Numbered from the stretch's first letter, positions 29,369 to 47,990 are shown. The stretch is 64,000 nt of DNA from an uncultured Methanoregulaceae archaeon (GCA_963701095.1 OY969564.1:640001-704000); one strand, 5' to 3'. Program-made: numbers and translations. Notes: generated by a model from the letters alone, not told the origin.

Positions 29369-29428
29369 CCGCTCTTTGATGATCCAATCAATCCCGGCAA
29401 GGGAGTTATCGTAGATCTGCTTCTCGCG
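29369..29428 (-). pseudogene. Fragment of a second mre11 allele
   Basis: Encodes REKQIYDNSLAGIDWIIKER versus REKQIYDNFLTAIDQIICEK in mre11. 29404-29428 is identical to 29056-29080 (25 bp). Confidence 0.8.
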
Positions 29429-29487
29429 TAAGGCTCATCCGCCTCAAAAAGAGCGTGAGATTTAACCCCGCTGCCACTATCGAGGAC
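29423..29487 (-). repeat. Gene-3'-end repeat, copy 1 (partial)
   Basis: ctcgcgtaaggctcatccgcctcaaaaagagcgtgagatttaacc...cgaggac matches the copies at 38730 and 44734. Confidence 0.85.
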
Positions 29488-29734
29488 AACGGAGGGATTG
29501 AGGAGGATATTTTATTTCGAAATCTGTTATTAGGATTTTTTTGGCTGGTATGAAAAAATGCCATCAAAGAGGGAACGTATCTTCGTTTTTCATAATCATT
29601 CAAACAATAATATTAAATTCAATAAAAAAAGAATTCAAAATGACGTAAATGAAACATACTTTTGATAGTTATTCGTGTTTTGAGAGGTGGAATAATACCA
29701 AAGCAAATTATGTCGCTCACTGGAGGGATATCTA

Positions 29735-30199
29735 ATGAGTCTTTCTGATGAGGATGAAAACGAACTGCGTCAAATAGATGCTGATACTGAGGAATATCAG
29801 GACCATATAAGGGAATCGGAACACGGTCGTATTAGACGACTAAAACCGATAAATCCCATCTACATCGTATTTTTCGTTATCTTTTTTATTGTTGCCTTTG
29901 CCTATAGCTTTGGCATGTTCGATCCATTATTAACTTCTCATCTGACAGAAAAAGTAATTGGGAAAGAGCGGATTTCGGGATTCAAGGGGAGTTCAGTATA
30001 TGTGATTTACACCCTTGATCAGCAAATATTTGAAGTAAATGATAATTTTTTTGTCGGGGCGACGAATGCACAGAACATCTATAATGAAATTCAAGCCGAA
30101 CATACGTATAATATGACCGTAATCGGTTGGGATATTCCGATACTCCATGTGGCTGGTGGGGGATACCCCAATGTTATCCAGGTTCAGGAAGTCAATTAA
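29735..30199 (+). CDS. Membrane-anchored protein, DUF1523-like (phage-associated family)
   Basis: One TM, then KER...YVIYT...FEVNDNFF...IYNEIQ...YNMTVIGWDIP...YPNVI. Confidence 0.55.
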   Translation: MSLSDEDENELRQIDADTEEYQDHIRESEHGRIRRLKPINPIYIVFFVIFFIVAFAYSFGMFDPLLTSHLTEKVIGKERISGFKGSSVYVIYTLDQQIFEVNDNFFVGATNAQNIYNEIQAEHTYNMTVIGWDIPILHVAGGGYPNVIQVQEVN

Positions 30200-30433
30200 T
30201 AAAAGAATTTTTTTATTCCTTCCCACCGATTGTGAAAAAATTGAAAAAGCGGACTGATCAATTTATTCGGCAAAATCTCAAGGAAAATGGAGAGAATGCA
30301 AAAAAGGGAGCGAAATTTGTGGATTTCTGGGCCTTTGGTGATTATTTATTAGTCCCACAGATGCACCCAAACTAACTAAAATTTAATATATACAAAACCT
30401 TGAATAATAAATAGAATCGAGTGAGGAATAAAC

Positions 30434-30712
30434 ATGGTATTCGACTTGGATATCGTTAATCTCCTTAATTTAGTGCTTTGTATTGTTATCATAATTCTGG
30501 GAGTAATTGTCTTCACGCGAAAGGACGAACTGGGCGCATTGATTATCAGTCTTGCTTTCTTTCTTTTTGGCATTTCCCATCTTTATACTCTGTTGGGGCT
30601 GGGATCAACCTGGGAAGCCGCTACGATCTCTGCCCGGACTGTAGGCTATATGTTGATAATCTTTGCGTTATACTTATTCTTAAATCATGGAATCGATAAA
30701 GGAGAGGAATAA
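30434..30712 (+). CDS. Small 3-TM membrane protein
   Basis: Hydrophobic 92-aa ORF with GAGGA RBS and an upstream TTTAATATATA. Confidence 0.75.
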   Translation: MVFDLDIVNLLNLVLCIVIIILGVIVFTRKDELGALIISLAFFLFGISHLYTLLGLGSTWEAATISARTVGYMLIIFALYLFLNHGIDKGEE

Positions 30713-30951
30713 ACAGGAGCTCTCTGTTGGCCTCGATTATATGGTGAGGGTCCGGCATTACGGTAAAACCTCAATACTGTCCATTTTCTTTTGCCACATC
30801 AGGTTGTCTGGAGTGCAGCATTGCCATTATCGTTGCCTCATCGAGATTGCCATAAGTTCCAGTTTCCGATGGATTGTTGCCGGGCTATCGCCCATTGCCC
30901 GGATAAGAAAGCAACTTCATCGAATACAGCAGCGAATTTCTGAAAATAGGA

Positions 30952-31010
30952 CATTGAATATATTGGTGTTTTACGGGATTATAGCCGAGTATGAATTCGG
31001 CAAAATCGCG
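30952..31010 (-). repeat. 59-bp promoter/leader-like repeat, copy 1
   Basis: Identical to 40665-40723; ends exactly at an ATG on the minus strand. Confidence 0.85.
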
Positions 31011-31037
31011 GGGAAAATGGAAGAATTGGAAAAAAGG

Positions 31038-32114
31038 TTAATGTTCTATGGTTCTCCTGATGAAGAGAACCGTTCCCAATAATCCGATGATCACGATAAC
31101 TGGAATCACTGGCGAGGGAAATTCTGGGATAACCGATGTATAGGAGAATTCGTCAGTAGGCGAAGTTGCAGATGTGCCGTACGGTGTCGTTACCGTAACG
31201 TCTACAACACCGGCAGTTTGGGCCGGGCTCACCGCGGTGATTGATGTATCCCCGTTAAAAGTGAAGGATGTTGCCGGTCTCGTGCCGAACGTTACGGCCG
31301 TTGCCCCGGTAAAGCCGGTGCCGTTGATGGATACTGATGTTCCACCGGCTGTAGGGCCGGAGATCGGTGAAATCGAGGTGACGGTCGGAATTATTAAACT
31401 AGAAGATACGGAAGCTAATTGCCAAATTGCTTGGTTGGGACCCGGTCCATCATTAGGATATCCTTCATACTGTCCCAGTATCAAGTAGAGAGGAGCTGTT
31501 CCTGCATTGACATTATCGAGTGTACCGAGTATATTGTTCCCGTGAGACAGCGTGATGTTCGCCTTCCCGTTTTTATCGACAGTAATTGTGAATGAATAGA
31601 AGATGTTATTTTGGGGATGGGCGTCTAAACAAGTGTCCTGATCATGATATTGAGAATTTCCAGCCCAAATACCCGTGTAACCGCTATTCGGATCAGTGTC
31701 TCCGAAGATTAGTACTTTATTCTGAAGGTCACGACTTACGAGAAATATTGTAAATGGGTTACCCGTTGCGACATTCCCTTCAACCGTTGTCTGAACAGTA
31801 AAAGGAGGAGTGAAATTGTTGTTGGATTGCATACCCGTCATCTGATATAGTCCATTAACACCTCCCATTGTCATACCCGTTTTGCTGAAACTCAATTGAA
31901 GACTAACGAAATTTTCTCCCAAGGATGAAGCTGTATTTTGAAGTACCGGCCCATTCATGGTCCAAAGTTGAGTGTTCAAACTAGTATCATTTGAAAAAAT
32001 ATCGGACACGTTTTTTCCATCAACCGAGACCGGCATACAGATAACGATTAAAAAAACAACAATGGGCAGGATGAATATCATCCTGTTCGTGAAATGCCCG
32101 TTTTGTTTACCCAT
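31038..32114 (-). CDS. Surface protein: beta-sandwich + IPT/TIG + PEF-CTERM
   Basis: Signal peptide; PTVTSISPISGPTAGGTSVSING; tail IPEFPSPVIP-TM-RRTIEH. Confidence 0.85.
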   Translation of the reverse strand: MGKQNGHFTNRMIFILPIVVFLIVICMPVSVDGKNVSDIFSNDTSLNTQLWTMNGPVLQNTASSLGENFVSLQLSFSKTGMTMGGVNGLYQMTGMQSNNNFTPPFTVQTTVEGNVATGNPFTIFLVSRDLQNKVLIFGDTDPNSGYTGIWAGNSQYHDQDTCLDAHPQNNIFYSFTITVDKNGKANITLSHGNNILGTLDNVNAGTAPLYLILGQYEGYPNDGPGPNQAIWQLASVSSSLIIPTVTSISPISGPTAGGTSVSINGTGFTGATAVTFGTRPATSFTFNGDTSITAVSPAQTAGVVDVTVTTPYGTSATSPTDEFSYTSVIPEFPSPVIPVIVIIGLLGTVLFIRRTIEH

Positions 32115-32636
32115 GATTTCTCACACCAGAAATTCTATGAGGATTCGAGTAGAGTCTCTCAAATGCTTTCATCCCAAGAACAGAAAATATGAAATCCTAA
32201 TGAGCGGTCATTGTGGTTATCCAGACAGATAACTAAGAGGCTTAGGATACGCAATAATAATGTAAATGTTATATATAATAACTCGGAAATAGCTCATTTT
32301 TCACGGATGACAAACGATCCGGGGGTTGCTGTTGATACCGGGCTTGCTGCTATACTCGGCGCTGGCACCTACTGTTCAGTTTATGCAAATAAAAGGAAAA
32401 CAATGCTGTTTCATCTACTTTGGTAAATTTTCCACATCTGAAGAGTGAACAAATTAACTGTAAACACAATAAATCTCCTTGAGCCGAATAGTACCACTGT
32501 TCATCTCAAATTTTGTTTTTTGCGTCAACGTCGAAAGGAGATATCAAAGTATTCTTTTTTTTTAATAAAGTTGCAGTAAAAAGGGTTCATCGAACCTTCC
32601 TCCTCGTGTAAATAGCATTTTTTGCTGGTAATTCTA

Positions 32637-32804
32637 TCATACTAAGCGCCTTTCAACTAACGTGAGGATCCCCTCAATGGCTCTGGTACTATCCAGGCAT
32701 GGTTGGGATCCCTCCTTCTCAAGAATTCGGAGAGACCTGCGTATTTCGTCAATTTCCTCCGAAGTGATAAGAACCCACGGGTTTTTATGTGGCATTATTA
32801 TCAT
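32637..32804 (-). CDS. Small hypothetical protein (about 55 aa, below the ORF-track cutoff)
   Basis: MIIMPHKNPWVLITSEEIDEIRRSLRILEKEGSQPCLDSTRAIEGILTLVERRLV*, read by hand downstream of the ABC permease. Confidence 0.5.
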   Translation of the reverse strand: MIIMPHKNPWVLITSEEIDEIRRSLRILEKEGSQPCLDSTRAIEGILTLVERRLV

Positions 32805-32901
32805 CTCTTCCCGGATCTGTTCTCCTACAAACTGGTGCCAGAGATCTACATAGGTAAAACATATCGTTGGTCCTTTGATTTCCTGCAGTTATCATCACGG
32901 A

Positions 32902-34113
32902 TCACTCGTGCCTCAGCGCATCAATCGGGTTAAGGTTAGCCGCCTGCACGGACGGATATACCCCGCAGAGAAGGCAGACGATAATACCAAATCCTACTCC
33001 TTCGACAACTGATGTCATGCTTGCCACCGTGAAGAGATACTTCGTAGTGCCAAGAAACAGAGCACTTACCAAATATCCGGCAAGGATACAGAGAATCCCC
33101 CCGATCAAGCTCCCCATCACACCGATGATAGCAGCTTCGTAGACAAACATGCTCATAACTTCCCTTTTTTGTGTGCCAATACTACGCATGATTCCGATCT
33201 CTTTGATCCTTTCGTTGACCGACATGATCATGATGTTAAAGATGGAAACACCCGCGACGATCATTGAGATACCCCCTATGGCCTCGACAAATGTCGTGAC
33301 CGAACTAAAGGTCGAATAGACGGTGGCAAGTGTTGCCTTGCTGTCCGTCACAGAAACAGTCTTATCCCTGGTGTTCCGGTTGAGCTGATTCTCAATGGTC
33401 GTTGTTACAGCCGCCGTAGTGCCGCTGGTGACCTTGACGACCACTTCATTATATTCACCCTGCTCATTGTAGGTACTCTCAAACCAATCTTGCGTCACGA
33501 CAATTGCACTATCGGTGCTGATATCAAAGCTCATTCCCCGTTCCACGATAATACCGGTCACTCTGAGCGTGCCGTATTGCCCATCGGTTCCGATAGAAAT
33601 GCGCGAACCGACCTTGATATTATGATCCGATGCAAATGTCGAACCTACCAGACAGCCGGAGTTTGCATTGTTGTAACCCCCTGCTTGGAGATTGGGTAAG
33701 AGAACGGATTCATCATCTGTCGGGATGCCGTAAATGGTCGCCACGATATCGTTGCTTCCGACACCCACTTGCATATGTTCGGATGTTGAAAGAACAGGAA
33801 TCGCCACGTTCGGGGCAACTACCCGTTTGATCAGCTGGAAATTTTGATCGGTAAGCATCAGGTTTGCAGAGCTTGAACCTCCACCGCCTCCGCTTGGGCC
33901 CATGCCTCCCCCTCCTCCGCTATATGGAGTGACAATTACCGAGTCCCCCACAGACGAGAGACTCGAGCTGATCTCCTGTGTAATACTATTTCCAAGGACA
34001 CCCATAGCACCGATGGCGACGACACCGATAATTATACCGAGCATTGCCAAAGTCGAACGGAGCATGTGGATCCGAATATTTCGTTTGGAGATCTCCCAGA
34101 ATATCGTATTCAT
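32902..34113 (-). CDS. ABC transporter permease (MacB-like)
   Basis: RSTLAMLGIIIGV, SVNERIKEIGIMRSIG, AANLNPIDALRHE. Confidence 0.94.
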   Translation of the reverse strand: MNTIFWEISKRNIRIHMLRSTLAMLGIIIGVVAIGAMGVLGNSITQEISSSLSSVGDSVIVTPYSGGGGGMGPSGGGGGSSSANLMLTDQNFQLIKRVVAPNVAIPVLSTSEHMQVGVGSNDIVATIYGIPTDDESVLLPNLQAGGYNNANSGCLVGSTFASDHNIKVGSRISIGTDGQYGTLRVTGIIVERGMSFDISTDSAIVVTQDWFESTYNEQGEYNEVVVKVTSGTTAAVTTTIENQLNRNTRDKTVSVTDSKATLATVYSTFSSVTTFVEAIGGISMIVAGVSIFNIMIMSVNERIKEIGIMRSIGTQKREVMSMFVYEAAIIGVMGSLIGGILCILAGYLVSALFLGTTKYLFTVASMTSVVEGVGFGIIVCLLCGVYPSVQAANLNPIDALRHE

Positions 34114-34781
34114 GCTGCAATTCTCCCGTCAACGATCCTGATGATCCGATTGGTATATTCAGCAACGAGGGGATCGTGAGTAACAACGATGACGGTTGAG
34201 CCCTTCCTGTTCAGTTCCGTCAGGAGTTCCATGATACTCGCGCCGGTCTTTGAATCGAGATTTCCCGTCGGTTCATCGCACAGCAGGATATCGGGATCAT
34301 TGATAAGCGCCCGTGCAACCGCAACACGCTGTTGCTGTCCCCCCGAAAGTTCGAGGGGAGTGTGTGAGAAGAGATTTTCATCGAGCTGGACTGCACGAAG
34401 CACTTCCCGCGCCTTGTCCTCATTAACTCCTTTACCGGATTTGAGCATCTGGGGAAAGCTGACATTCTCGATGATGTTGAGCAGGGGAAAGAGGTTGAAG
34501 TACTGGAAAATGAACCCGATACGATCCCGTCTCAGGTTCGTGAGTTCGATATCGCTCATATCGCCGACTCCTATCCCACTTATGAAGATATCACCGGTGG
34601 TTGGTGTATCAAGGCATCCCATCAGGTTCAGCAGTGTTGACTTGCCGGATCCCGATGGCCCCATGATCGATATGAACTCCCCCCGTTCCACTTCAAATGA
34701 GACGTGGTTAAGGGCAGTCACATCTCCGGCCTTGAGCGGATAGATTTTAACCACGTCGGAAAACTGGATGACCGGTTGCAT
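34110..34781 (-). CDS. ABC transporter ATP-binding protein (MacB/LolD-type)
   Basis: [29 protein letters not shown]. Confidence 0.95.
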
Positions 34782-34797
34782 GATGCACCGTCCTCCT

Positions 34798-36060
34798 TTA
34801 CTGTTTCTTTCGCTTCTTCATGTAGAGATACCCGCCTGTACCAAGCACAATTATAATGACAATAATCAGTAACGGAAGCATGCTTGGTTGTGAACCAGTC
34901 TGAGTTGTAGCCTTTGTTAGGTCGATATTCTGGACGGAGGTGATAATATTGCCATTACTGTCTCTGAAAGATTGCTGGAGGGGTACGCTTGTCGTGCCTT
35001 CAGGCACCGTAAAGGTGAGCTCGAAACTGCCGAAGTCATCCGGTTTGAGTGCACCGATAACATAATTCACGTCAGGTTCCTGCGGCACTGCGGGAGAAAG
35101 TGATGTGACCGTGACACCATTTGCGTTCGAGAGACCGGCATTGGTTAAATCTCCGGTGAGGTCGTAAGTCCCGTTGTTGAATGCGATAACAATATTGCTC
35201 ATCACCGGATCGGCCTGCACTTTGTCGGTTGTAAACAGGATCGGCAGAGTGGTATTGATCGTATGGTCGTTGTCCCCGTTCCCGTAATCGACCTGCATGG
35301 AAAGTGAAGTGGGGGAATCCGGTGTAACAGTAAAATTGACCAACGTACTGGTCCCGGCAGGCAGATACCCGATATATGTCTTCGAAGGCGTAAGGGTGGC
35401 ATCGTTCCCGGTAACATCAAAGATGACATTTTTCACATCGTTATCACGGGGATTTGAGATTTGAACACTGATAGTCGCTTTAACTCCTTGGTTGAATGAA
35501 TCCGGCTGGTTAGCAATGGTCATTACAAGGGGTGTATTGTCCACCTTGACCGGTGTTTTTGAATACATTCCATTCCCGGCGACAAAGTTCAAAGAGAATG
35601 AAGGATAGTAGGTACTCGCAGATTTATCCGTTTTAATAGAGAATACAAACGACTGGGTCTGGAGAGGCCCAATGTTGACATTGGTGTCATACGTGCCGCT
35701 GATAAGGTGGATATCGTCATCACCGAAGGTAGCATGGTTGACCATGACGCTTTGGTTTGCATTCCCGTTGGTGACGTAAAACGTTGCAGTTGCAGTATCC
35801 CCGGTAAAGAGGACTGCCGGATCGAGCGTATAGTTTGATAAATATACGTTGTTTGCAGCCTGAACAGCATCAGTTATGGCGTCAGCATTTGCCGGAAGAA
35901 TCAAAAATCCCATGGCCAGGAAAAGAAACACGAGCACCACGTATGCGGAACGCGGCATCCGAGCGAAAATGCTTTTCCTTGCTCCTGAATGAGCCGGCCT
36001 GTGGTCTGCTAAAAAATTCCGATTATCCGGATATGATGGTAGATATTTCATTCTGAACAT
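34798..36060 (-). CDS. COG1361 S-layer-like protein with C-terminal TM
   Basis: Hydrophobic signal, Ig-like segments, IGALKPDDFGSFELTF, TM followed by KKRKKQ. The start position is uncertain. Confidence 0.82.
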   Translation of the reverse strand: MFRMKYLPSYPDNRNFLADHRPAHSGARKSIFARMPRSAYVVLVFLFLAMGFLILPANADAITDAVQAANNVYLSNYTLDPAVLFTGDTATATFYVTNGNANQSVMVNHATFGDDDIHLISGTYDTNVNIGPLQTQSFVFSIKTDKSASTYYPSFSLNFVAGNGMYSKTPVKVDNTPLVMTIANQPDSFNQGVKATISVQISNPRDNDVKNVIFDVTGNDATLTPSKTYIGYLPAGTSTLVNFTVTPDSPTSLSMQVDYGNGDNDHTINTTLPILFTTDKVQADPVMSNIVIAFNNGTYDLTGDLTNAGLSNANGVTVTSLSPAVPQEPDVNYVIGALKPDDFGSFELTFTVPEGTTSVPLQQSFRDSNGNIITSVQNIDLTKATTQTGSQPSMLPLLIIVIIIVLGTGGYLYMKKRKKQ

Positions 36061-36078
36061 TCGCAATTCCCCAAATGA

Positions 36079-36167
36079 GTAGTAAAATATTTTACTACAA
36101 TTTTTACATGAGTTTGACCCAGGACTTATAAAAAAGTATTCATCGTAGTAGTTAAATTATTAACAAC
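36079..36167. promoter_or_regulatory. Divergent promoter with two operator-like palindromes
   Basis: Perfect palindrome GTAGTAAAATATTTTACTAC (36079-36098) and a 15/20 copy GTAGTTAAATTATTAACAAC (36148-36167) flank TTATAAAA (about 36126). Confidence 0.7.
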
Positions 36168-36187
36168 TCCGTGAACACTATATTCAT

Positions 36188-37018
36188 ATGGAAAGCATCC
36201 CCGCATCTCTCGTAAAATCGCTCAATAATCTCGGGTTGTCCAATAATGAAGCGAATGTTTATGCCGCGCTGGTCATGTTCGATAATGCAGATGCAAAAGA
36301 TCTTATTGAATATCTCTCTATCTCAAAGCCAAGCGTATACGAGGCTCTGGATCACCTGGCGGAAATGGGACTTGCGGTAAAAAGAATCACCAAACCGGCA
36401 CGATATAGCGCGGTTTCACCTCACATGGCCATTGACCTGCTCATGGGCAACCATAAAAAGTCAGCCAAACTGGCACTGGAAAAACTGGAAAAACTGGAAC
36501 TGGAAAAGGTGCGCACCGATAAGGAGGAGGCTCTCTGGACCATATATGGAGATAAGAGCGTCGAATATAAGTTTCGTGACCTTTTCGGTAAGGCAAAAAA
36601 TCATATCCGGTGCATGATCGGTGAGCGATACCTTCCGTTGGTTGAAAATATACAAATTAAGGATATTTCCCTGTCGCTTATCGTAATATCTGATGCTCCG
36701 GGTCTTGAGAAAAAATTGCGGGCTCAGTTCCCGGGAAAGAACGCGGATATCCATGTGATCACTTCGAAAAAGTTTGCTACTCCCCCACCCTTTGCTCCTC
36801 CGGAATTTGAAGAGCTCCATAAACTGATGAGAGTCGAAAACACGCTGGAACTGATTGTTGATGATGAGGAACTTCTCATGATCCCGCCGTTTTACTCTGA
36901 CACGGTTTCAGTCCTCAATACCCGGAACAAGGGGGCCGTTCTCCAGTTGAAACTCTTCAGCCAGTTTAATTTGAAGCGATTTACTGATGGAATGGATTTT
37001 TCACCGACTGCTCAGTAG
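36188..37018 (+). CDS. TrmB-family transcriptional regulator
   Basis: LNNLGLSNNEANVYAAL...ISKPSVYEALDHLAEMGL...PARYSAVSP, LWTIYG. Confidence 0.9.
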   Translation: MESIPASLVKSLNNLGLSNNEANVYAALVMFDNADAKDLIEYLSISKPSVYEALDHLAEMGLAVKRITKPARYSAVSPHMAIDLLMGNHKKSAKLALEKLEKLELEKVRTDKEEALWTIYGDKSVEYKFRDLFGKAKNHIRCMIGERYLPLVENIQIKDISLSLIVISDAPGLEKKLRAQFPGKNADIHVITSKKFATPPPFAPPEFEELHKLMRVENTLELIVDDEELLMIPPFYSDTVSVLNTRNKGAVLQLKLFSQFNLKRFTDGMDFSPTAQ

Positions 37019-37803
37019 GTGCAGGTGGCGGTGCCATCTCCGTCCCTTCCGGCTCGGCAACTATAACCTCTTCTATATTCACCAATTGCTCGGCAGGTGG
37101 GGGCGGCGCTATCTTTTCAAACAACGCGATAACCATAACCTCTTCGACATTCACCGACTGCTCGGCATACTTCGGCGGCGCCATCGCTACCGGCCCGGCA
37201 ACCATGACCTCCTCGACATTTACCGGGTGCTCAGCAATAGAAGGCGGCGCCATCTTTAATGACGGCGGCACTATGCATTTTTGTCGGATTTATAACGATA
37301 CCGGAATAGCGGTATATAATAACGGTGTCTATTCATTCGATGCATCAGACAACTGGTGGGGCAGCAACAGCGATCCCTCTAGATACACGAGCGGAAACGT
37401 CATCAGCAGTCCATGGTTGGTGCTCGGTGTGATGGCGTCCCCATCCACCATCAACCCTACACAGACCTCTACAATCTCGGCAAACCTGACGGACAATTCC
37501 GCCAGAAACACGCTTTTTGGGACCTATGTTCCCGACAATATCCCGGTCTCTTTTTCAAGTACCGGCGGTACTGTTAATCCCTCAAAGGGTTCGACCCAAA
37601 ACGGTGTGTCCAAGACGACCTTCACACCCTCATCAACCGGTACCGCCTCTGTCACCGCGTCCGTTGACGGTCAGAGCATGACAGCGCCGGTCACGGTGAT
37701 TTCGGGGGGTCTGCCCGAATTTCCCTCTCCTGTGATACCAGCGATTCTAATCATCGGATTGCTGGGAACGGTTCTGTTCATCCGGCGAATCCGAGAATAC
37801 TAA
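37000..37803 (+). pseudogene. 5'-truncated surface protein gene (GGAI/FxxC polymorphic repeats, Ig-like domain, PEF-CTERM)
   Basis: The frame is open from about 37000 (FTDCSVGAGGGAIS...FTNCSAGGGGAIF...), then DASDNWWGSN and LPEFPSPVIP-TM-RRIREY. No start or signal peptide; it overlaps the trmB end. Confidence 0.8.
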
Positions 37804-37875
37804 CTTTTTTTTAATCAATCTTTCTCCGTATGACCGCGTTTTAGATTATGAAAAAAGTGAATTAAGATCAAATTA

Positions 37876-38042: not shown

Positions 38043-38134
38043 AAGTGTATTCTTAAAGTCCTGAGAACGGGATAGAACTTTTTTATCGAAAAACTCATAA
38101 TCTAAGAATCTTATATTCTAAGTTGTGAGTGCAT

Positions 38135-38350: not shown

Positions 38351-38694
38351 ACCGGCACAGGGATCCATTGTCCTTGTGGATTTTTCCTATTCCGACCAGG
38401 TCCAGTCCAAAATGCGTCCGGGCGCTTGTCGTGAGTAACTCCCGGTATAACAGGATCTCCCGTGATGTAATTGTCATGAAAATCACCTCCAGAAAGCCAA
38501 AACTCATGGAGGTCAGTTTGAAAAACGATGATCTTCTGGCCGGATCGTTGGATCATCCCAGCTACGTTCAGGCTGATGGGATCTATGCTCTGGAAAAAGA
38601 ACTCATCTGCAAATCCATCGGTGTTGTTCGGCCAGAGAAGATGCAGGAAATCAGGGGCCTGGTTTTGGATCTCTTCTCTCCTGACAGGGAGTAA
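38343..38694 (+). CDS. mazF: PemK/MazF-family toxin, copy 1; +1 frameshift at about 38420
   Basis: QGSIVLVDFSYSDQVQSKMRP / ALVVSN...DVIVMKITS. One extra G relative to the intact copy at 46048. Confidence 0.85.
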
Positions 38695-38729
38695 TTTTCC
38701 CGGAGAAAAAGCGGTAATGTGTCCTCTAT

Positions 38730-38857
38730 TCATCCGGTAACACATTATCCTCACCCGGTACCGCAACCGCAATCCTTCCCTTGATATACTCACTCGCGTA
38801 AGGCCCATCCGCTTCAAAAAGAGCGTGGGATTTAACCACGCTGCCATCAGCGAGGAC
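38730..38857 (-). repeat. Gene-3'-end repeat, copy 3
   Basis: VLADGSVVKSHALFEADGPYASEYIKGRIAVAVPGEDNVLPDE. Confidence 0.9.
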
Positions 38858-38936
38858 GGAAGTCACCAACACAACAGCACGTAAGTTGCAAAGGTTAATA
38901 ATTCGCTCCGACAAGTGAGTCTTCCGGGACGGTATT

Positions 38937-39548
38937 ATGAGGAAGATAATTGTTCTTTCGTTTGTAACGCTTGATGGCGTTATGCAAGCTCCGGGAGGAC
39001 CGGAGGAAGATCCATCCGGAGGCTTTCGGTACGGGGGCTGGATGGTACCCTATGGCGATGAATTCATGGGAAAAGAGATGATCCGTCAGGTGAGCAGGCC
39101 GTTCGATTTACTCCTCGGGAGAAAGACCTATGAGATTTTTGCAGCGTACTGGCCGAACGCGACAAACCCCAGTGATCCCATAGCCGTGGGATTTAACCAT
39201 GCAACGAAGTACGTTGTCTCAAAAACCCTGACAGCACCCGGATGGAACAAGTCTGTTGTTATCAGCGGGGATGTGGTCGAGGAGATCAAACGGCTCAAGG
39301 AACGCGACGGACCTCAGTTGCAGGTTCACGGAAGCGGAAACCTCATCCAGACACTCATGAAACATGACTTAGTCGATGAATTGTGGCTGAAAATATTTCC
39401 CATCACGCTTGGCCCGGGAAAGCGCCTGTTTGCTGACGGCACTATCCCCGCAGCATTCAAACTGCAGGAATGCAAGACCTCTCCGAGCGGGGTTATCATC
39501 GCTTCGTACCAACGTGCGGGAGAGGTAACCACGGGATCTTTTGTCTAG
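38937..39548 (+). CDS. Dihydrofolate reductase-like (RibD C-terminal domain) protein
   Basis: SFVTLDGVMQAPGGPEED, LLLGRKTYEIF, VHGSGNLIQTL, LVDELWL, GPGKRLF. Confidence 0.9.
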   Translation: MRKIIVLSFVTLDGVMQAPGGPEEDPSGGFRYGGWMVPYGDEFMGKEMIRQVSRPFDLLLGRKTYEIFAAYWPNATNPSDPIAVGFNHATKYVVSKTLTAPGWNKSVVISGDVVEEIKRLKERDGPQLQVHGSGNLIQTLMKHDLVDELWLKIFPITLGPGKRLFADGTIPAAFKLQECKTSPSGVIIASYQRAGEVTTGSFV

Positions 39549-39608
39549 AGGTGTGAAGAGCGTTCGTCTCCCGATCCATTTCCTTCAACTATAATTTTTC
39601 AGTTACTG

Positions 39609-39638
39609 TCACCTTTTCCCGCTTGGCCTTCCCGGGCG
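39609..39638 (-). repeat. Gene-3'-end repeat, copy 4 (terminal 30 bp)
   Basis: tcaccttttcccgcttggccttcccgggcg = RPGRPSGKR*. Confidence 0.8.
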
Positions 39639-39839
39639 TGCCGGTTCTGATAGGTTGACAGGACTTCGTGAGAAAATTCAATTAAAAATGAATTATTTCA
39701 ACGTATTGAATTGGAAAAATTATCAGAGGTCCCGGGAAGTTATCAGCTCCTTTGATTGAATAGTTTCAACGAGGTGAAATATTCGTTCATCAACCTCAGG
39801 CGCTAAACAGATCCAATAATCATCGTCTTTGCTGTTGCT

Positions 39840-40451
39840 TTAGGGAATTTTAAAGAAAACCTTCTTTTCCCGGACATCATGGCAATAGCGACATTCGGTA
39901 GAGCATTTTTCAGCCTGGTAAACAGCATCTCCGTCGCGAACTTTTCCTGCTTGCTTTTCGAATAGAGCGAAATCTCTTCCACAATGCTCACACCGTGACA
40001 TACAATAGTAAATGAGTGAATCCAAAACCACGATGAAAATTGCCAATGCAATAAGCCCGAGGATTAAAATTTCTATGCCATATTTGGGAAATCTCGGTAG
40101 TAATCCAATAAAGGTCGATCGCGTAAATTGATTCGGGGGTATGTTAATGATAGATGCAATACCTATGGGAATTACCAAAAAGAACGAAATGAATGCTATC
40201 AAATCAATGATAATACTCCCTTTAAAACCGACTACACTCATTAAAACTTTTGCAATAACTTCAATATTTGAGGGATCCGCAGGTGCAGTTTCAAATTCCC
40301 GTGATGTATCCTGGATGGAACAGGTATTCTGCTCGATTTTTGATCCATGACCAATTACCGCCTCGTTCTTAAATGTAGTGCCATTGCCGGTTTTTATGGA
40401 ATGATCGTCAATGATATTATTTTGAGGATCCTTATTTTTCAAGATTTGCAC
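39840..40451 (-). CDS. AT-rich hypothetical membrane protein with C-terminal zinc ribbon
   Basis: Two TMs, then CEHCG...CRYC; GGAGG RBS before a GTG start. Confidence 0.65.
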   Translation of the reverse strand: MQILKNKDPQNNIIDDHSIKTGNGTTFKNEAVIGHGSKIEQNTCSIQDTSREFETAPADPSNIEVIAKVLMSVVGFKGSIIIDLIAFISFFLVIPIGIASIINIPPNQFTRSTFIGLLPRFPKYGIEILILGLIALAIFIVVLDSLIYYCMSRCEHCGRDFALFEKQAGKVRDGDAVYQAEKCSTECRYCHDVREKKVFFKIP

Positions 40452-40664
40452 CCCCTCCTATGACACCATCTATCCCGAATATATTTTCGTTTGCAAAAGT
40501 AATACTATCGTCCTGAACACAGAAAAACAGGGTTCTGTCACGTCTTCAGGTAGTTGCATCAAGCCTTCGTCGAGGAAAATATGTCGCCAGTCACGGACTT
40601 AACCGAGCCCCGCCCTGCATTCCGGAAGCATTCAGGTTAACCTGACGGTGTTAGCGCCTGCTTC

Positions 40665-40723
40665 CATTGAATATATTGGTGTTTTACGGGATTATAGCCG
40701 AGTATGAATTCGGCAAAATCGCG
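40665..40723 (-). repeat. 59-bp promoter/leader-like repeat, copy 2
   Basis: Identical to 30952-31010. Confidence 0.85.
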
Positions 40724-40775
40724 CAGATAATGAAAGGATTGGGAAAAAAGTGGCGAGCAGCGCCAGAAAATTTCA

Positions 40776-41452
40776 TTACCAGATAAAGGGAATAAGCCGA
40801 TAGTGGACATTCTGTGTATACTCGCGGTAGCCTTCCACTCCTTGGCTAGCATCTTTTCTTCCCCAATTATCCTTGCCATCAAAAGAACCATAAGAACAAG
40901 ACCTACAAGCACACCAAAGGATGAACTTAAAAGCAGCGGTGCCCCGATCATCATCAGGATTGCGCCAAGGTACATTGGATGCCTGACAAACCTATAAACA
41001 CCGGTCGATATAACCTGCTGCTTCCGGTCGTTCTGGATTCTTACCAGGGGTGAGAGGAATGAATTATCGGCAAATGACCGGAAGAACAGTATGAAGGATC
41101 CGACCAACCCGGCTCCTCCAAGGAGATTCAGCCAGACAGGGAATGCGGGAGACCAGCCAAACCGTTTTGCATCAAGTGGCATAATGACAATCCAGAGCGT
41201 AAACCCGGTTATGAGTCCGTAGACAACGTACCGGTCCCAACCTTCCTGATTGCCGGTACCAGGTTTCTTATATCTTTCTTCCAACAGCGCCGGGTTTTTC
41301 CGGTACAAGGAGAGGATCGTCGAAAAACAGAGAACAATAAACCAGATGCAAAAAACCCAACCTGCAATCCAGAGAAGATCTCCAGAAAGTACGAGGATGA
41401 GAGCAGGAAACAGAAGAATATACAGAAATGTGAAGACGGTCTTCTTCTCCAT
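40776..41452 (-). CDS. Isoprenylcysteine carboxyl methyltransferase (ICMT/PEMT) family; frameshift near 40838
   Basis: VISTGVYRFVRHPMYLG, RIIGEEKML; the true end EGYREYTQNVHYRLIPFIW* is in the adjacent frame. Confidence 0.87.
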
Positions 41453-41729
41453 GAAAACTATTATGTGCAGTCGAAGTATTAATCAGTCGCCTCGTTTGTA
41501 GTTCGATCCGTTTTACAGTACTGGTGCGTTAACGGGACTCGAATGAAAATGGCATCGTCGAAATCCATAGAAGTTGATTTTTTAATAGTCCCGCCATCTC
41601 AGAACCTGAATAAATCATCCGCTTTCACGACTAAAGGCGCGACCGTGCAGATAACGCCGTCACGTCCGGGATCCACGTATTGAAATAATCCTGGAGTTTC
41701 TCAGCTATCCCCGTTACAATCTTCGGCGG

Positions 41730-41805
41730 AATAGCCATCCTCCCCTTGATATATTCACTAGCGAAAGGCGCGTCTGCCTCAAAAATATCATGGGATTTAA
41801 CCACG
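41730..41805 (-). repeat. Gene-3'-end repeat, copy 5 (internal part)
   Basis: VVKSHDIFEADAPFASEYIKGRMAI. Confidence 0.85.
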
Positions 41806-41963
41806 ATGCGAAGCAAAGTTGCATTGCATCGTTTTATAATTTGCAGGAAATTAATAAATTCAATTAAGGGGCCCGGGACAAGCTCCAGCTGACTATCTTT
41901 TTGCATTCACTCTTCGAGAAAGCCATTCAGTCTTGATCCTAAGGCAAAAGAATGGTGAGTTAG

Positions 41964-43379
41964 ATGAAATCAATTCGAATAATACTCGTAGTGGCCATAC
42001 TTCTTTTCCTTCTGATTTTTATTCAGGGCGTGATGGCTGCGGAAACGTATGGGTATGTGACACAATGGGGTTCCGTTGACTCGGGCAATGGAACGTTTAA
42101 CAATCCCAATGGAGTAGCAGTCGATACATCCGGCTATGTCTATGTTGCTGATATCGGGAATGACAGGATCGAGAAATTTGATTCCAATGGGATTTATCAA
42201 ACTCAATTTGGCACACCTGGCTCGGGTAATGGGCAATTTGAGGGACCCAGAAGTGTAGCAGTCGATAGTTCTGGCAACGTTTATGTAGGTGATGATACTA
42301 GAATTCAGGAATTTGATTCGAATGGGAATTATTTGATGAATATAACTCTCACCGGATATGGCAGCCAAAACACAGATTTTATTCCATGGGGTTTGGCTGT
42401 CGATACATCAGGGAATATCTACGCTGTCGATGGAAACTCGGTTCTGTTAAAATTTGATTCGAATGGAAACTATATCGCGAACTGGAGTATTAGTCTTCCA
42501 ACCGGAGTTGCCGTTGACACTTCAGGAAATGTGTACGTCTCGCAGATGTGGGGGAACATCCAAAAAAATGGAAACTTCTTAGTACTCTTTGGGGAGAATG
42601 GAGATACTAGTAGGTACCCTATGGGTCTTGCTGTTGATGGAACCGGTAACATTTATGTGACGGAAGGAGTCGATAACCGGATTAATGAATTCGATTCAAA
42701 AGGGAATTTTGTAACCCAATGGGGCACCAGGGGTTCTGGAAAAGGTCAGTTCTTTGAACCCAATGGTATTGCCGTGGATGCATCCGGCAATGTATACGTT
42801 GCGGATTCAGGGAACAACAGGATCCAGAAGTTTGCTCCATCTCAGCCCGGCGCTATTACTGTGACTTCTGAGCCGGCTGGTGCCGAGATTTATCTCGATA
42901 GTGAAAACACAACACAGGTAACACCGTACACGTTCGAAAATCTCAACCCGGCTGACTACGATGTTTATGTCGTCCTTAACGGGTATTCTGTACCAGACGT
43001 TCAGACCGTCGATGTGACAGAAGGTTCAACTGCAACCGCCGATTTCCCGCTCCACACACTGGTGAACGGATCTATCTCAGTGATTGCTGCAATAAATGGT
43101 GCTGAAATCTGGATCAACAATGTTGACACCGGACATGTGGCCCCGTTTACCTTTGAGAACATGCCTTGGGGATCCTATCTGATCGAAATAAAATCTTATG
43201 CGTGCTATCAAATGCCGCTGGATGTAACCATTTCGCCAGCTGATCCTGTCGCAACGGCTGACTTCTCCTCTTGCATGCCTCCTATGTTACCCGAATTTCC
43301 CTCGCCGGTCATACCGGCGATTATGATCATCGGATTCCTTGGAGCCGTATTGTTCATCCAACGAACCAGAGAACACTAA
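41964..43379 (+). CDS. NHL-repeat beta-propeller + PEGA domains + PEF-CTERM surface protein
   Basis: Repeats FNNPNGVAVDTSGYVYVADIGNDRI; VTSEPAGAEIYLD (PEGA); LPEFPSPVIP-TM-QRTREH. Confidence 0.92.
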   Translation: MKSIRIILVVAILLFLLIFIQGVMAAETYGYVTQWGSVDSGNGTFNNPNGVAVDTSGYVYVADIGNDRIEKFDSNGIYQTQFGTPGSGNGQFEGPRSVAVDSSGNVYVGDDTRIQEFDSNGNYLMNITLTGYGSQNTDFIPWGLAVDTSGNIYAVDGNSVLLKFDSNGNYIANWSISLPTGVAVDTSGNVYVSQMWGNIQKNGNFLVLFGENGDTSRYPMGLAVDGTGNIYVTEGVDNRINEFDSKGNFVTQWGTRGSGKGQFFEPNGIAVDASGNVYVADSGNNRIQKFAPSQPGAITVTSEPAGAEIYLDSENTTQVTPYTFENLNPADYDVYVVLNGYSVPDVQTVDVTEGSTATADFPLHTLVNGSISVIAAINGAEIWINNVDTGHVAPFTFENMPWGSYLIEIKSYACYQMPLDVTISPADPVATADFSSCMPPMLPEFPSPVIPAIMIIGFLGAVLFIQRTREH

Positions 43380-43891
43380 TTTTTTCAATCTTTAAAAATC
43401 CGGCTCCGGAATTTGAGAGGTTTTAGTCCCCTTTTTTGATGCCCCTGCTCGCTTCAGGCGATTATGGTTCATCCGTACAACCATTCCAGTGGAAGTATCC
43501 CCGGCGGGCATTCCCGTTTTTATCATCAGTTTCAGAAGGCCGGTTATCCGTCGTTTTACTAAAGTGGCAGCGCAAAGAATCTTCCTGCCGGGTGCGACCT
43601 ACACAACCGCAGGTGTCCTCCAGTCAGGAACTGACATAGTACCAGTTGAATTTACGGCTAACTTTTACTATTCAGGAGTTACAGGCAATTATGATCTCAC
43701 GGTTCGCGAGATTGGGCCGTAATAATTTTCTCTTCAACCGGGACTGGTTTTTTGACCAAAAGGAGAGTTTCATTATGCACGGCTATTGCTTCTTCAGACG
43801 ACATTCTTTTTCGTTATGTGCCGATACCGCATCAGCATTGCAGAGAGATACTTTTATATACAATCATCGTAACTTCTGGTCAGTGAGATTT

Positions 43892-44533
43892 ATGAAAAAC
43901 CATATCCTTGTTGTTCCGGTTCTGTTTCTGGTTCTTATGTGTGTAATTATGATTTCCGGATGTACGTCAAACACCGGTAATAGTGCAGTTACGACGGTAC
44001 CTACAACGCTGCCTGTGGCTACCGCTGCAGGACCACAGTACCTGACCTATACCAATCCAACATATCAACTGACGATGTCGTATCCTTCTGACTGGCGGGA
44101 ACAGGATGTTGCTCCAGCGACCTGTTTGGCAGCACGTCCCTATGGCAAAACTACCTGTAATATTGTTAATTTCTTTTCCCCGACGGTTAATGGAAAATAT
44201 ACTACCTTCAGTATTGACGTAGATAATCCGACAACATCGACTCTTGGAACGTATTTTAACAATGTTACCGGTGCAATAGAGAACTATTACCCGGGCGTGC
44301 AGGTCGTTCAAACCTCTCTCCAGGAGGAAATTTCCGGCAATCCTTCATATGAGCTTGTCTATACTACAGGTCAGGAGGGGAAAACAAATCCAGTACCGGC
44401 GATTGTGGAAGTCACTTTTGGAAATACTAACGTCCCGTATATTATTTCCTATTCTGCATTAGATGATCAGACATTCGATTATATGGTCAAATCTATCCAG
44501 ATAGCGACGGTACCCCCCACACAAGGCCGGTGA
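43892..44533 (+). CDS. Lipoprotein with PsbP-like domain
   Basis: Lipobox-like ISGC; YLTYTNPTYQLTMSYPSDW...FDYMVKSIQI. Confidence 0.75.
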   Translation: MKNHILVVPVLFLVLMCVIMISGCTSNTGNSAVTTVPTTLPVATAAGPQYLTYTNPTYQLTMSYPSDWREQDVAPATCLAARPYGKTTCNIVNFFSPTVNGKYTTFSIDVDNPTTSTLGTYFNNVTGAIENYYPGVQVVQTSLQEEISGNPSYELVYTTGQEGKTNPVPAIVEVTFGNTNVPYIISYSALDDQTFDYMVKSIQIATVPPTQGR

Positions 44534-44733
44534 ACTTTTTTTTATTTTTTTGCAGGACTACAAGAAACGTGACCTGCACCGGGAAACCTATTATTCCGGA
44601 TTGAATATTCTCTCATCATAAAGACCAGCACGATTGCCGTTGAGGATACTCCCGAGAACCGACAGATCTGTATGAAGTACTGCGATGCATGCTCGAGCTA
44701 CCAGGAGAACAATCCTGGACAAAACCGCCATCC

Positions 44734-44898
44734 TCATCTTTTCCCGCTTGGCCTTCCCAGGCGCCCTCTCTTCATCCATTAATACAGTCTCCCCTCCTGG
44801 AACCGCGACCGCCATTTTTCCCCGGATATACTCACTCGCGTAAGGCTCGTCGCCTCGAAAATATCGTGGGATTTAGCACAAATAACATCAGCGAGGAC
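44734..44898 (-). repeat. Gene-3'-end repeat, copy 6 (full length)
   Basis: VLAD...KSHDIFE..EPYASEYIRGKMAVAVPGGETVLMDE...GRPSGKR*. Confidence 0.9.
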
Positions 44899-44971
44899 GA
44901 TCCTTCTTAATAGTCCAGGTAATCGAAATTCACAAAAATAAGAATAAAAATTATATCGTAACCAAGTATCT

Positions 44972-45238
44972 TCAATACTCGAAATTCTTCTTTTTTCCGA
45001 TAGTGATTATTTCAATGAGCAGCATATCATGATGGATAAAAAACGTCACCCGGTAATCTCCAACGCGAAGGCGGTACCGGGGCATTATCCTCGGACTGTC
45101 CCGGACTTTTACAACGTCATGACGCAGATCCGGGTTTTCAGCAAATCGCTCTAAGGCAAGTTCGATGTGGATACGAAAATCCCGGGGAATTGACCTCAGG
45201 TCTTTTTCTGCCCGCCGTGAAAGTTTTATCTGGTACAC
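44972..45238 (-). CDS. relE: RelE/ParE-family toxin
   Basis: YQIKLSRRAEKDLRSI...YRLRVGDYRVTF...IITIGKKKNFEY. Confidence 0.9.
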   Translation of the reverse strand: MYQIKLSRRAEKDLRSIPRDFRIHIELALERFAENPDLRHDVVKVRDSPRIMPRYRLRVGDYRVTFFIHHDMLLIEIITIGKKKNFEY

Positions 45239-45242
45239 GCCA

Positions 45243-45503
45243 TCACAGGTTCCGGGCTTTGATTACTTCGTCGTCACCCAGATCCTTCATGACATCCCGA
45301 AGCGAGCGTACCCTTCCCGCCTTAATGTCGGCTATTCCTTCCTCCATTGCATCAATCTCATCTTTGGTAAGGGGCTCATCATCATACGCTAATTTAGCCA
45401 GGCGGCGAACAACATCATCATAGGTCTCCCGGGGGTTGATCTTCAGATCGTCCAGAAGCGCCTTCGTATCTGTCCGCATTCGTACGGTTGTAACTTCTGA
45501 CAT
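45243..45503 (-). CDS. Cognate antitoxin (RHH-like archaeal family)
   Basis: TTVRMRTDTKALLDDLKINPRETYDDVVRRL...IADIKAGRVRSL, directly upstream of relE. Confidence 0.85.
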   Translation of the reverse strand: MSEVTTVRMRTDTKALLDDLKINPRETYDDVVRRLAKLAYDDEPLTKDEIDAMEEGIADIKAGRVRSLRDVMKDLGDDEVIKARNL

Positions 45504-45518
45504 ATACATGAGTATATG
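45501..45518. promoter_or_regulatory. Candidate autoregulatory operator of the antitoxin-relE operon
   Basis: Inverted repeat CATATAC-atga-GTATATG overlapping the antitoxin start codon. Confidence 0.5.
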
Positions 45519-45581
45519 CATATATACTGTAATAAATGGATCACTTTGGGGTAAAAAAATTTCTCTGTTTTATCGTTATCC

Positions 45582-45747
45582 TTATTGTTTCCCGCTTGGT
45601 CTTCCCGGTCGCACCCTCTTGTCATCCGGTAACACATTCTCCCCTCCCGGAACCACAATAGCATCTTCCCTTGATATACTCGCTGGCATACGGCTTGCCA
45701 GCCTCAAAAATGTCATGGGATTTATCCACGCTTCCATCCGCGAGGAC
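45582..45747 (-). repeat. Gene-3'-end repeat, copy 7 (full length)
   Basis: VLADGSVDKSHDIFEAGKPYASEYIKGR.../VVPGGENVLPDDKRVRPGRPSGKQ*. Confidence 0.9.
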
Positions 45748-45839
45748 ACGCGTATTCTTAAAGTCCTGAGAAATTAACAAAACCTTTGCACCGAAAAAAT
45801 CATAATCTAATAATCTTATATTCTAAGTTGTGAGTGCAT

Positions 45840-46055
45840 ATGTCTGATACGACACTTGTCAAGGTCTCGTCAAAAGGGCTTGTCACCCTCCCGAAAAAGA
45901 TCCGGTCAAAACTCGGCATAAATGACGGGGATTATCTGGCAATATCATCGAATAAAGACCAGATTATCTTCCGGAAAGCGAAGATCGAAATCGATTATGA
46001 AAACCCGGATGATGCATGGAAAGAGTACTCAAAGAAAAAGTTAGCACATGACTGA
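45840..46055 (+). CDS. AbrB/MazE-family antitoxin, copy 2
   Basis: Differs from copy 1 by two residues. Confidence 0.9.
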   Translation: MSDTTLVKVSSKGLVTLPKKIRSKLGINDGDYLAISSNKDQIIFRKAKIEIDYENPDDAWKEYSKKKLAHD

Positions 46056-46398
46056 TCCGGCACAGGGATCCATCGTCCTTGTGGATTTTTCCTATTCCGA
46101 CCAGATCCAGTCCAAAATGCGTCCCGCACTTGTAGTGAGTAATACCCGGTATAACAGGATCTCCCGTGATTTTATCGTCATTAAAATCACCTCCAGAAAA
46201 CCAAAACTGATGGAGGTCAGTCTGAAAAACGATGACCTTCTCGCCGGATCGCTTGACCATCCCAGCTATATTCAGGCTGATGGGATCTACGCTCTGGAAA
46301 AAGAGTTAATTTGCAAATCCATTGGTGATGTTCGACCAGAGAAGATGCAGGAGATCAGGAACCGGGTTTTGGATCTCTTCTCTCCAGATGAGGAGTAA
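46048..46398 (+). CDS. mazF: PemK/MazF-family toxin, copy 2 (intact)
   Basis: QGSIVLVDFSYSDQIQSKMRPALVVSN...IVIKITS...PSYIQADGIYAL. Confidence 0.92.
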   Translation: MTDPAQGSIVLVDFSYSDQIQSKMRPALVVSNTRYNRISRDFIVIKITSRKPKLMEVSLKNDDLLAGSLDHPSYIQADGIYALEKELICKSIGDVRPEKMQEIRNRVLDLFSPDEE

Positions 46399-46430
46399 TT
46401 TTCCCGGAATCCAATATTTTACTGTTAATC

Positions 46431-46452
46431 TCATTTTTTCCCGCTTGCCTTC
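46431..46452 (-). repeat. Gene-3'-end repeat, copy 8 (terminal remnant)
   Basis: tcattttttcccgcttgccttc = SGKK*. Confidence 0.65.
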
Positions 46453-47984: not shown

Positions 47985-47990
47985 ACCCTG

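Follow-up and report, generated by a model that had tools for sequence, protein, structure and literature searches.

A putative accretion array of virus-linked cassettes upstream of mre11 in an uncultured Methanoregulaceae archaeon

We analysed a 64,000-nucleotide (nt) stretch from an uncultured Methanoregulaceae archaeon (GCA_963701095.1, OY969564.1:640001-704000), referred to here as the window, which covers positions 640001–704000 of a 2,625,686-bp genome. Within it, at positions 29,369–46,452 and upstream of mre11, eight co-oriented copies of a repeat of ~190 bp, here called X, alternate with small groups of genes. X turned out to be a small gene of a tailed virus, and its copies in the window are broken and stem from different alleles. 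In our preferred but tentative reading, to which we assign a probability of roughly 45%, the region represents an accretion array, now stranded and in decay, whose virus-linked cassettes lack a recombinase and were joined by recombination supplied in trans.

Eight broken copies of X from different alleles

X was delimited by a repeat search over window positions 28000–48000, by an nhmmer profile built from five copies and run on the whole 2.63-Mb genome, and by motif look-up. Together, these searches identified eight copies in the window, all on the minus strand (Table 1) and all within a few bases of the places proposed in an initial annotation of this DNA. Seven of them were recovered by nhmmer (E 4.9e-57 to 0.019). 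Outside the window, the same search found one intact X on the plus strand (genome 821782–821973) and two degenerate relics at 2239363–2239474 (+) and 2611052–2611154 (-), while two further matches (E 0.058 and 2.5) were disregarded. The genome total is 11 copies; eight are clustered and co-oriented and the three others lie in both orientations, which is not the scatter of an insertion-sequence (IS) fragment or of a MITE, a miniature transposable element with inverted repeats.

When aligned, the array copies span X from about codon 4–10 to ~20–30 nt beyond its stop, with 5' limits clustered at X nt ~10–31. The start codon is present in none of the eight and every copy is broken: copy 2 by an in-frame stop, copies 6 and 7 by frameshifts, copy 3 by an early stop and a lost tip, and copies 1, 4, 5 and 8 by truncation. 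The stop that copies 4, 6, 7 and 8 had been said to share was seen in their reading frames. Neighbouring copies are 64–84% identical to each other. The island that holds the array is GC-poor (0.40–0.52, mostly 0.40–0.50) compared to its flanks (0.52–0.56).

Codons were compared in ten X copies (45 pairs, 38 codons). Differences at codon positions 1, 2 and 3 numbered 184, 201 and 589, respectively, in line with the synonymous variation described initially. The corresponding estimate of selection, the ratio of nonsynonymous to synonymous differences per site (pN/pS), was 0.04–0.57, with pS values of 0.32–0.69 between distinct alleles and of 0–0.04 among the near-identical X copies of loci L017, L018 and L006. 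Since differences are biased towards the third position, the array copies come from different, once-functional X alleles; the earlier view that they are diverged alleles brought together, not local duplications, is thereby upheld. The signature of selection predates arrival in the array, as every array copy is broken.

Read evidence consisted of assembled Logan contigs from four runs. Independent short-read contigs (run X1) bridge copies 1, 4, 5–6 and 8 and show no rearrangement. Variant joints (38859>39609, 39639>38756 and 31037>29502) were seen in one contig each, with a short side of 31–45 letters and 88% likeness, and are indistinguishable from repeat-induced or other-strain contigs; a junction of the same kind, in which a second repeat (Y, described below) adjoins a leader, is present at genome 835.7 kb.

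Against this background, a MITE-like non-autonomous transposable repeat, or an assembly artefact, is scarcely credible as an explanation of the array. The three copies elsewhere, in both orientations, would suit such a repeat, but the divergence pattern is that of coding sequence, only 11 copies exist, most of them clustered and co-oriented, and independent contigs bridge several of them. Further, no terminal inverted repeats were noted, although they were not searched for systematically.

X is a complete small virus gene

The intact X is a 67-amino-acid (aa) open reading frame (ORF) on the plus strand that starts 15 nt after a frameshifted HK97-type capsid gene, 135 kb from the array and inside a tailed provirus; across copies and relatives the gene is 65–67 aa long. 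The initial annotation had regarded the copies as the C-terminus of a larger gene and had predicted an intact parent on the minus strand beyond the right edge. An intact parent does exist, but in a provirus integrated in tRNA-Thr and on the opposite strand, and the larger gene was not found: an X profile gave nine matches at E <= 0.001 against 1.84 billion representative proteins, none of them a longer parent, and no longer host gene ending in X was found in 401 genomes of the order. What is repeated is an entire small gene of a virus and not the 3' end of a larger host gene.

Relatives of X fall into eight clusters, including its own, in a set of 5.8 billion proteins. X was present in one of 102 other Methanoregula genomes, in none of 298 others of the order, and on one contig, titled 'uncultured Methanoregula sp.', among 185,579 species genomes. 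Scans of viral contigs with X alone, with an X alignment and with the capsid protein gave no relatives, and a first scan of genome contigs found nothing. Matches to X in the protein Atlas were only small tailed-virus proteins, below the 0.9 bar, and the AlphaFold2 model of X was poor (mean predicted local distance difference test score, pLDDT, 54.5). X as a decayed mre11 5' end was rejected, with a best local alignment score of 7 vs. a shuffle mean of 8.6.

The head genes of the provirus encode the small and large terminase, portal, head decoration and capsid proteins; tail tube, Dit and Gp37-like genes follow 10–19 kb beyond them, and a tyrosine integrase gene lies at the far left. A PD-(D/E)XK Cas4-like exonuclease (phrog_69) is also encoded. 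Since a 42-nt direct repeat corresponding to the 3' part of tRNA-Thr(GGT) is found at both ends (786606–786647 and 848760–848801), the provirus measures ~62 kb and its integrase has an ordinary tRNA attachment (att) site. A shorter provirus ending at X, with an att site there, was discarded: no repeat exists between the assumed ends, and the tail genes lie 10 kb further on. Between X and the tail genes there are ~10 kb of opposite-strand cargo, i.e., accessory genes inserted in the structural module. When the provirus flanks were compared with five relatives, histidine-kinase paralogues were found on one side and no BacA match on the other. The frameshift of the provirus capsid gene lies near its 3' end.

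The same neighbourhood recurs in metagenome loci L015 and L016, which overlap at 99.9% and have the order capsid gene, X, 132-aa gene, 154-aa gene, X. Their capsid–X part is 89.6% identical to the provirus of the present genome.

Two other observations concern the provirus and its capsid. A UG5-type reverse-transcriptase-nitrilase defence gene (DRT) in the provirus (L001:10827-13908; genome ~813.8–816.9 kb) is split into two ORFs, 414 and 614 aa long, which PADLOC recognised with E values as low as 5e-134; a Cas4-like PD-(D/E)XK nuclease gene adjoins it. A second, distant capsid-like gene (genome 358341–362113; 32% identical to the provirus capsid) adjoins two large upstream ORFs and a 408-aa ORF that resembles a tyrosine recombinase by eye; no X was found after this second gene at 358 kb.

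Cassettes, cargo and the second repeat Y

Six of the seven intervals between X copies measure 0.65–2.9 kb, with up to two genes per unit, and cargo occurs on both strands (four intervals plus, two intervals minus). Pfam confirmed the cargo names given initially, except for a 203-aa 'Zn-ribbon' protein without a Pfam match. Among the 74 window ORFs scanned with Pfam (42 + 32), no tyrosine or serine recombinase or transposase family was found, and neither was any viral gene family, capsid, terminase and tail included. The absence of an integrase from the window and the description of the units as small cassettes without a recombinase, both proposed before, thus hold for these ORFs. The cargo genes probably carry their own promoters.

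The two units that consist of an X copy and mazEF (X2 and X7) are 88% identical in the cargo and 80–84% in both halves of X. As they are alike throughout, cargo is linked to the X copy that comes after it when one reads in the direction of X. An apparent mosaic breakpoint at X nt ~98 was rejected, being the product of a 2-nt indel, with both halves of X2 and X7 similarly alike.

The cassette of the 154-aa protein, together with X, matches L016 at 91.5% identity over 798 nt. In L016 it is flanked by X copies on both sides and follows the capsid gene; here it is found beside mre11, 150 kb from the provirus. Comparison with a relative, as suggested at the outset, has thus revealed a shared cassette in a different context, the relative being ~90% identical. 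X copy 5 is 88.6% identical to the G086-type X and is fused to a module (41635–41739) that, in G086, sits 2.4 kb downstream of a solo X.

These arrangements also bear on the idea that several whole proviruses integrated in tandem and that all but X and the adjacent accessory genes were later deleted. The X alleles do look like those of different functional viruses, the present provirus has many accessory genes inserted after X, and tandem proviruses are known in archaea (PMC6563490). However, at least seven deletions of ~50 kb each, all stopping at X nt ~10–31, would be needed, which is unparsimonious; the window ORFs scanned include no piece of a capsid, terminase or tail gene, the provirus att site lies far away in a tRNA-Thr, and the second X in L015/L016 follows only two small genes. 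We consider this history very improbable.

For a second repeat, Y, of ~100 nt, nhmmer recovered 16 genomic copies at E <= 0.01, including three in the array and five in the provirus. X and Y are each found in the same two of 108 Methanoregula genomes only. In the provirus, Y copies adjoin opposite-strand accessory genes, both in the stretch that separates X from the tail genes and inside the tail module; Y often bounds accessory units of one to four genes, and a whole or half Y precedes cassette-borne X copies in two lineages. One provirus unit, Y-flavodoxin-Y, is 92.7% identical over 1206 nt to a chromosomal unit in G086. The latter adjoins a Mo-oxidoreductase gene, and its flank is only 82% identical to the present genome, which carries a degenerate X relic at the matching place. 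The 5-bp inverted-repeat arms of Y are kept in only four of 12 full copies, and only two partial Ys break alike; Y as an inverted-repeat core site may be taken as a weak lead.

The mre11 5' end is a recurrent landing site

Copy 1 combines two sequences: X nt ~17–93 are joined, at a shared CGCGAG, to an mre11-like fragment. The upstream region of an AAA_14/DUF4143 ATPase gene and then the intact mre11 follow. The ATPase-upstream remnant is 80% identical over 159 nt to G295 and also matches G361, G285 and G179. G295, the closest genome by Mre11 (84%), has the same isolated mre11 fragment (nt 76–131), which there leads into that same upstream sequence and then into the ATPase gene itself; the isolated fragment of mre11 nt ~76–132 is thus common to G000 and G295.

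In a survey of 107 other Methanoregula genomes with Mre11 residues 1–85, 59 gave matches, and 12 of these 59 have extra mre11 5' copies on the same contig (mre11-duplication loci L020, i.e., G327:C7, L025–L033 and L036). Ten of the 12 loci, with 13 extra copies, were examined in detail by blastn. Nine of the 13 reach the promoter and begin at -46 to -71 at TTTCAC, and the other four begin at -3 to +76; ends lie at +51 to +316, and identity to the main gene is 77–95%. The cargo between the copies includes an AAA_14/DUF4143 ATPase in five genomes, and otherwise PIN + AF2212 + PD-(D/E)XK, an LVIVD protein, a P-type ATPase + FMN reductase, DsbD-like + DUF4418, KilA-N, a beta-lactamase-family protein and a flavodoxin. 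No integrase was found between duplicated copies in the cargo examined. The mre11 5' end is therefore a recurrent, genus-wide hot spot at which small cassettes without an integrase have landed, and the X array lies right next to it.

At these loci, the main mre11 copy of G327 carries two frameshifts. An FMN-reductase gene lies directly downstream of the displaced mre11 5' fragment in G303, G310, G247 and G344 (L027, L028, L035 and L036), a placement that looks as if the gene were driven by the duplicated mre11 promoter.

On the array side of copy 1, a block of ABC-transporter and regulator genes is 78.8% identical over 4122 nt to a block located 5–9 kb upstream of mre11 in G247. Divergence of this degree is what orthologues ordinarily show; of the first 8-kb interval, initially described as a longer block between copies, ~4.1 kb is therefore native chromosome.

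In the model of the initial annotation, mini-elements lacking an integrase entered the 3' end of a single host gene one after another, each bringing a replacement end, by means of a trans-acting recombinase. The copies are indeed co-oriented, diverged alleles with a shared stop. Arrays at re-used att sites and integration into the 3'-distal part of protein genes are also known in archaea (PMC6563490), and such accretion is documented for the mre11 5' end in the 12 genomes above. Nevertheless, X as found after the capsid gene is an entire small gene of a virus and has a start codon of its own, no longer parent was found in the 1.84 billion representatives or in the 401 genomes, the intact X is not contiguous with the array, and the copies cover nearly the whole gene instead of a short, att-sized end. 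Displaced gene ends left by serial integration are thus seen in the genus at mre11 and not at X, for which the model is improbable.

The 3' tip of X and the joining of the cassettes

The last 21 nt of X ahead of its stop region (the tip; window 39615–39635, minus strand: CCGGGAAGGCCAAGCGGGAAA) have a pairwise identity of 96% (302/315). Third-position identity is 92% (97/105) in the tip vs. 59% (322/550) in the body of X. Genome-wide, the tip motif was found only in X copies when up to three mismatches were allowed, and copies 4 and 8 consist of the tip alone. The tip is thus conserved far beyond the needs of coding and is the best candidate for a cis-acting site.

In the reading that we prefer, a unit would consist of cargo and the start-less X copy that follows it, and the X alleles would come from different viruses, having already diverged under protein-level selection. 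As this divergence preceded arrival, the units would have been joined by recombination between dissimilar X copies and not by local duplication; because the array encodes no enzyme, the joining reaction would have been supplied in trans. Given that neighbours are only 64–84% identical, the copies now present are unlikely to have recombined homologously with one another. The most likely route is a short-core exchange, similar to a site-specific one, at the 21-nt tip. Such a trans-supplied exchange fits best and would explain why the tip is conserved, why some copies are tip only and why the units lack a recombinase. Assembly of the array probably took place after the capsid gene in a virus or provirus, as in the ~90%-identical relative, and the array may then have been joined to a pre-existing mre11 5' duplicate at the CGCGAG microhomology. 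Later deletions would have removed starts, tips and halves of X.

Relaxed (homeologous) recombination on its own offers another route, with X as a conserved anchor beside a site of accessory-gene insertion and with neither a dedicated site nor a dedicated recombinase. Unequal crossing-over between viruses or proviruses in a co-infected cell, performed by host RadA or a viral exonuclease/annealing system, would then have stacked units of X and cargo. Phage Rad52-type recombinases tolerate diverged partners. In agreement with this route, X flanks variable cargo in two proviruses, the array lacks a recombinase and X shows no sharp crossover point; as the provirus encodes a PD-(D/E)XK exonuclease, the Cas4-like phrog_69 protein, relaxed homologous exchange stays a serious rival. 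On the other hand, neighbours of 64–84% identity are a poor substrate even for relaxed systems, and three features would stay unexplained: the additional conservation of the tip at the nucleotide level, the copies reduced to a tip and the clustering of the 5' limits. On balance, we regard this route as possible, albeit unlikely.

Several results weigh against assembly of the array by trans-supplied exchange at the tip. The tip is present in five of the eight array copies and absent from three, no solo tip was found elsewhere in the genome in the motif search (<=3 mismatches), and the conservation of the tip is drawn from six to eight non-independent sequences of a gene with very few homologues. 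No sharp mosaic breakpoint was found within X. The integrase of the provirus, the only one examined, uses a tRNA att site that bears no relation to X, Y or mre11. Neither a recombinase nor a circular junction nor a polymorphic order of cassettes was demonstrated, and the read data are limited to fragmented contigs with ambiguous joints. Because the first interval contains native chromosome, copy 1 may have a history separate from that of copies 2–8. Lastly, as the array touches no viral gene, its assembly in a virus is deduced from a single pair of short metagenome contigs.

A broader proposal, which we advance as speculative and rather doubtful, is that Methanoregula viruses and their hosts share an undescribed exchange of small, promoter-bearing cassettes by a trans-acting recombinase, with the X tip and Y as sites and with movement between proviruses and a few chromosomal hot spots, namely the mre11 5' end and the Mo-oxidoreductase-adjacent site. 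Such an exchange would be the archaeal, virus-borne counterpart of integrons in function, working independently of attC.

Comparison with known systems

Integrons and clusters lacking an integrase (CALINs), including archaeal ones (10.1101/2022.02.06.479319), are described as short tandem cassettes between co-oriented repeated sites that are rich in toxin-antitoxin genes and can stand without an adjacent integrase, all of which is also true of the X array; their sites are sequence-variable with a conserved end, as is X. In contrast to integrons, the X array has no attI, its repeat is a protein-coding virus gene and not a folded attC, and its cargo lies on both strands, with up to two genes per unit and apparently with its own promoters. 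Neither PF00589 nor another recombinase was detected among the 74 window ORFs, with the IntI-specific domain left out of the search and the provirus integrase as the only integrase examined. RNAalifold predicted a weak fold for ten X copies (-12.7 kcal/mol) with an unfavourable covariation term (+0.76), in which three of 26 predicted pairs show a two-sided change with the pair kept, and no Rfam match at E <= 0.1 was obtained in 28000–48000. An attC-like fold or a known RNA family was rejected for X on these grounds, although a dedicated attC model was not applied. Given the lack of IntI and of an attC-like fold, and the orientation of the cargo, the array is not an integron.

Tyrosine-recombinase elements of archaea and bacteria can form arrays by re-using one att site, and in archaea insertion into protein-coding genes is also on record (PMC6563490). 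Integrase-less cis-mobilizable elements and tandem islands at ssrA belong to the same kind (PMC6563490, PMC5704250, PMC3146451). Direct gene-end repeats around foreign DNA, with displaced copies, are described there and fit the mre11 5' duplications in 12 genomes as well as the fragment beside copy 1. The X array differs from them in that its repeat is a viral gene and not the host target, its units of 0.65–2.9 kb all lack an integrase, and its repeats are ~190 bp long and 64–84% identical instead of short identical cores.

The provirus itself is reminiscent of a third arrangement. In tailed phages, morons are accessory genes that bring promoters of their own and sit among the conserved genes of the structural module. 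Similarly, X follows the capsid gene and ~10 kb of cargo precede the tail genes in the provirus. However, morons are not normally bracketed by a repeated neighbouring structural gene, nor are they found eight deep outside a virus. Contiguity with viral structural genes is absent in the window and present in L015/L016 and at genome 821.8 kb.

No published description of such an array was found in literature screened by title and the start of the abstract. The use of a small gene of a viral structural module as boundary, units of one or two genes, a second boundary (Y) and the link to the mre11 5' hot spot are unusual. If cassettes bounded by X and Y do move, viruses of methanogens would possess a modular means of gathering and transmitting toxin-antitoxin, surface and enzyme genes that needs neither attC nor an integron integrase. 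For this globally important lineage of methane producers, it would be a new route of gene flow. Whatever the mechanism, the mre11 5' end is a recurrent landing site across Methanoregula.

Coordinates and minor observations

The positions of the features discussed above are collected in Table 1.

Table 1. Features of the array, its surroundings and the provirus; positions are those of the window unless marked as genome positions.
Feature	Position	Strand	Evidence and remarks
mre11, first gene of mre11-rad50-nurA operon	28019–29161	-	Pfam Metallophos; Rad50-like and NurA genes downstream
Remnant of AAA_14/DUF4143 ATPase cassette upstream region	29271–29377	-	80% identical over 159 nt to region just upstream of ATPase gene in G295; ATPase ORF absent
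mre11-like 61-nt fragment	29378–29438	-	mre11 nt 73–132, 85% identical to resident gene; blastn E 8.6e-12
X copy 1	29416–29489	-	nhmmer E 7.4e-14; 5' part only, joined to mre11-like fragment
Cassette of 154-aa membrane protein	29490–30309	+	leader with half Y, gene 29735–30199, partial Y 30265–30309
Y, partial	30265–30309		nhmmer
Y, full copy	30940–31039	+	nhmmer E 8.7e-26
Native block: MacB/FtsX permease, ABC ATPase, CARDB-like, TrmB regulator	32902–36990		Pfam and G247 match
X copy 2	37869–38059	-	nhmmer E 4.9e-57; near full length, in-frame TGA, shifted tail
mazE/abrB-like antitoxin + mazF toxin, first copy	38129–38694	+	Pfam PF04014, PF02452
X copy 3	38719–38873	-	nhmmer E 2.2e-45; 3' tip gone (~34-nt deletion), premature stop
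RibD_C (dihydrofolate-reductase-like) protein	38937–39548	+	Pfam PF01872, E 1e-23
X copy 4	39608–39642	-	nhmmer E 0.019; 3' tip only, exact 21-nt tip motif
203-aa Cys-rich membrane protein	39840–40451	-	no Pfam family
ICMT/PEMT-family methyltransferase	40637–41452	-	Pfam PF04191, PF04140
Y	40664–40754	+	nhmmer E 3.9e-23; between 203-aa and methyltransferase cargo genes
X copy 5	41729–41809	-	nhmmer E 2.9e-18; middle part only
NHL/PEGA surface protein + PsbP-like lipoprotein	41964–44533	+	Pfam
X copy 6	44728–44905	-	nhmmer E 4e-50; near full length, frameshifted
ParE/RelE-type toxin + DUF7557 antitoxin	44972–45521	-	Pfam PF05016, PF24434
X copy 7	45576–45763	-	nhmmer E 1.3e-54; near full length, 2-nt deletion
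mazE/abrB-like antitoxin + mazF toxin, second copy	45834–46398	+	Pfam
X copy 8	46416–46452	-	repeat search and motif look-up; 3' tip only (last ~35 nt), 1-nt deletion
Y	63280–63377		nhmmer; 12 more places elsewhere in genome
Provirus, ~62 kb	genome 786606–848801		loci L024, L001, L002, L040; integrated in tRNA-Thr(GGT)

Two paralogous sets of CARDB-like, MacB-FtsX and ABC-ATPase genes were observed in the window, on opposite strands (14481–17660 and 32902–36066). Further, the 96-nt 3' ends of the surface-protein genes of the island are 81% identical (window 37714–37809 and 43290–43385); they presumably encode a C-terminal membrane anchor of the PEF type, which we also take to be the type of the C-terminal anchor of the NHL/PEGA surface protein.

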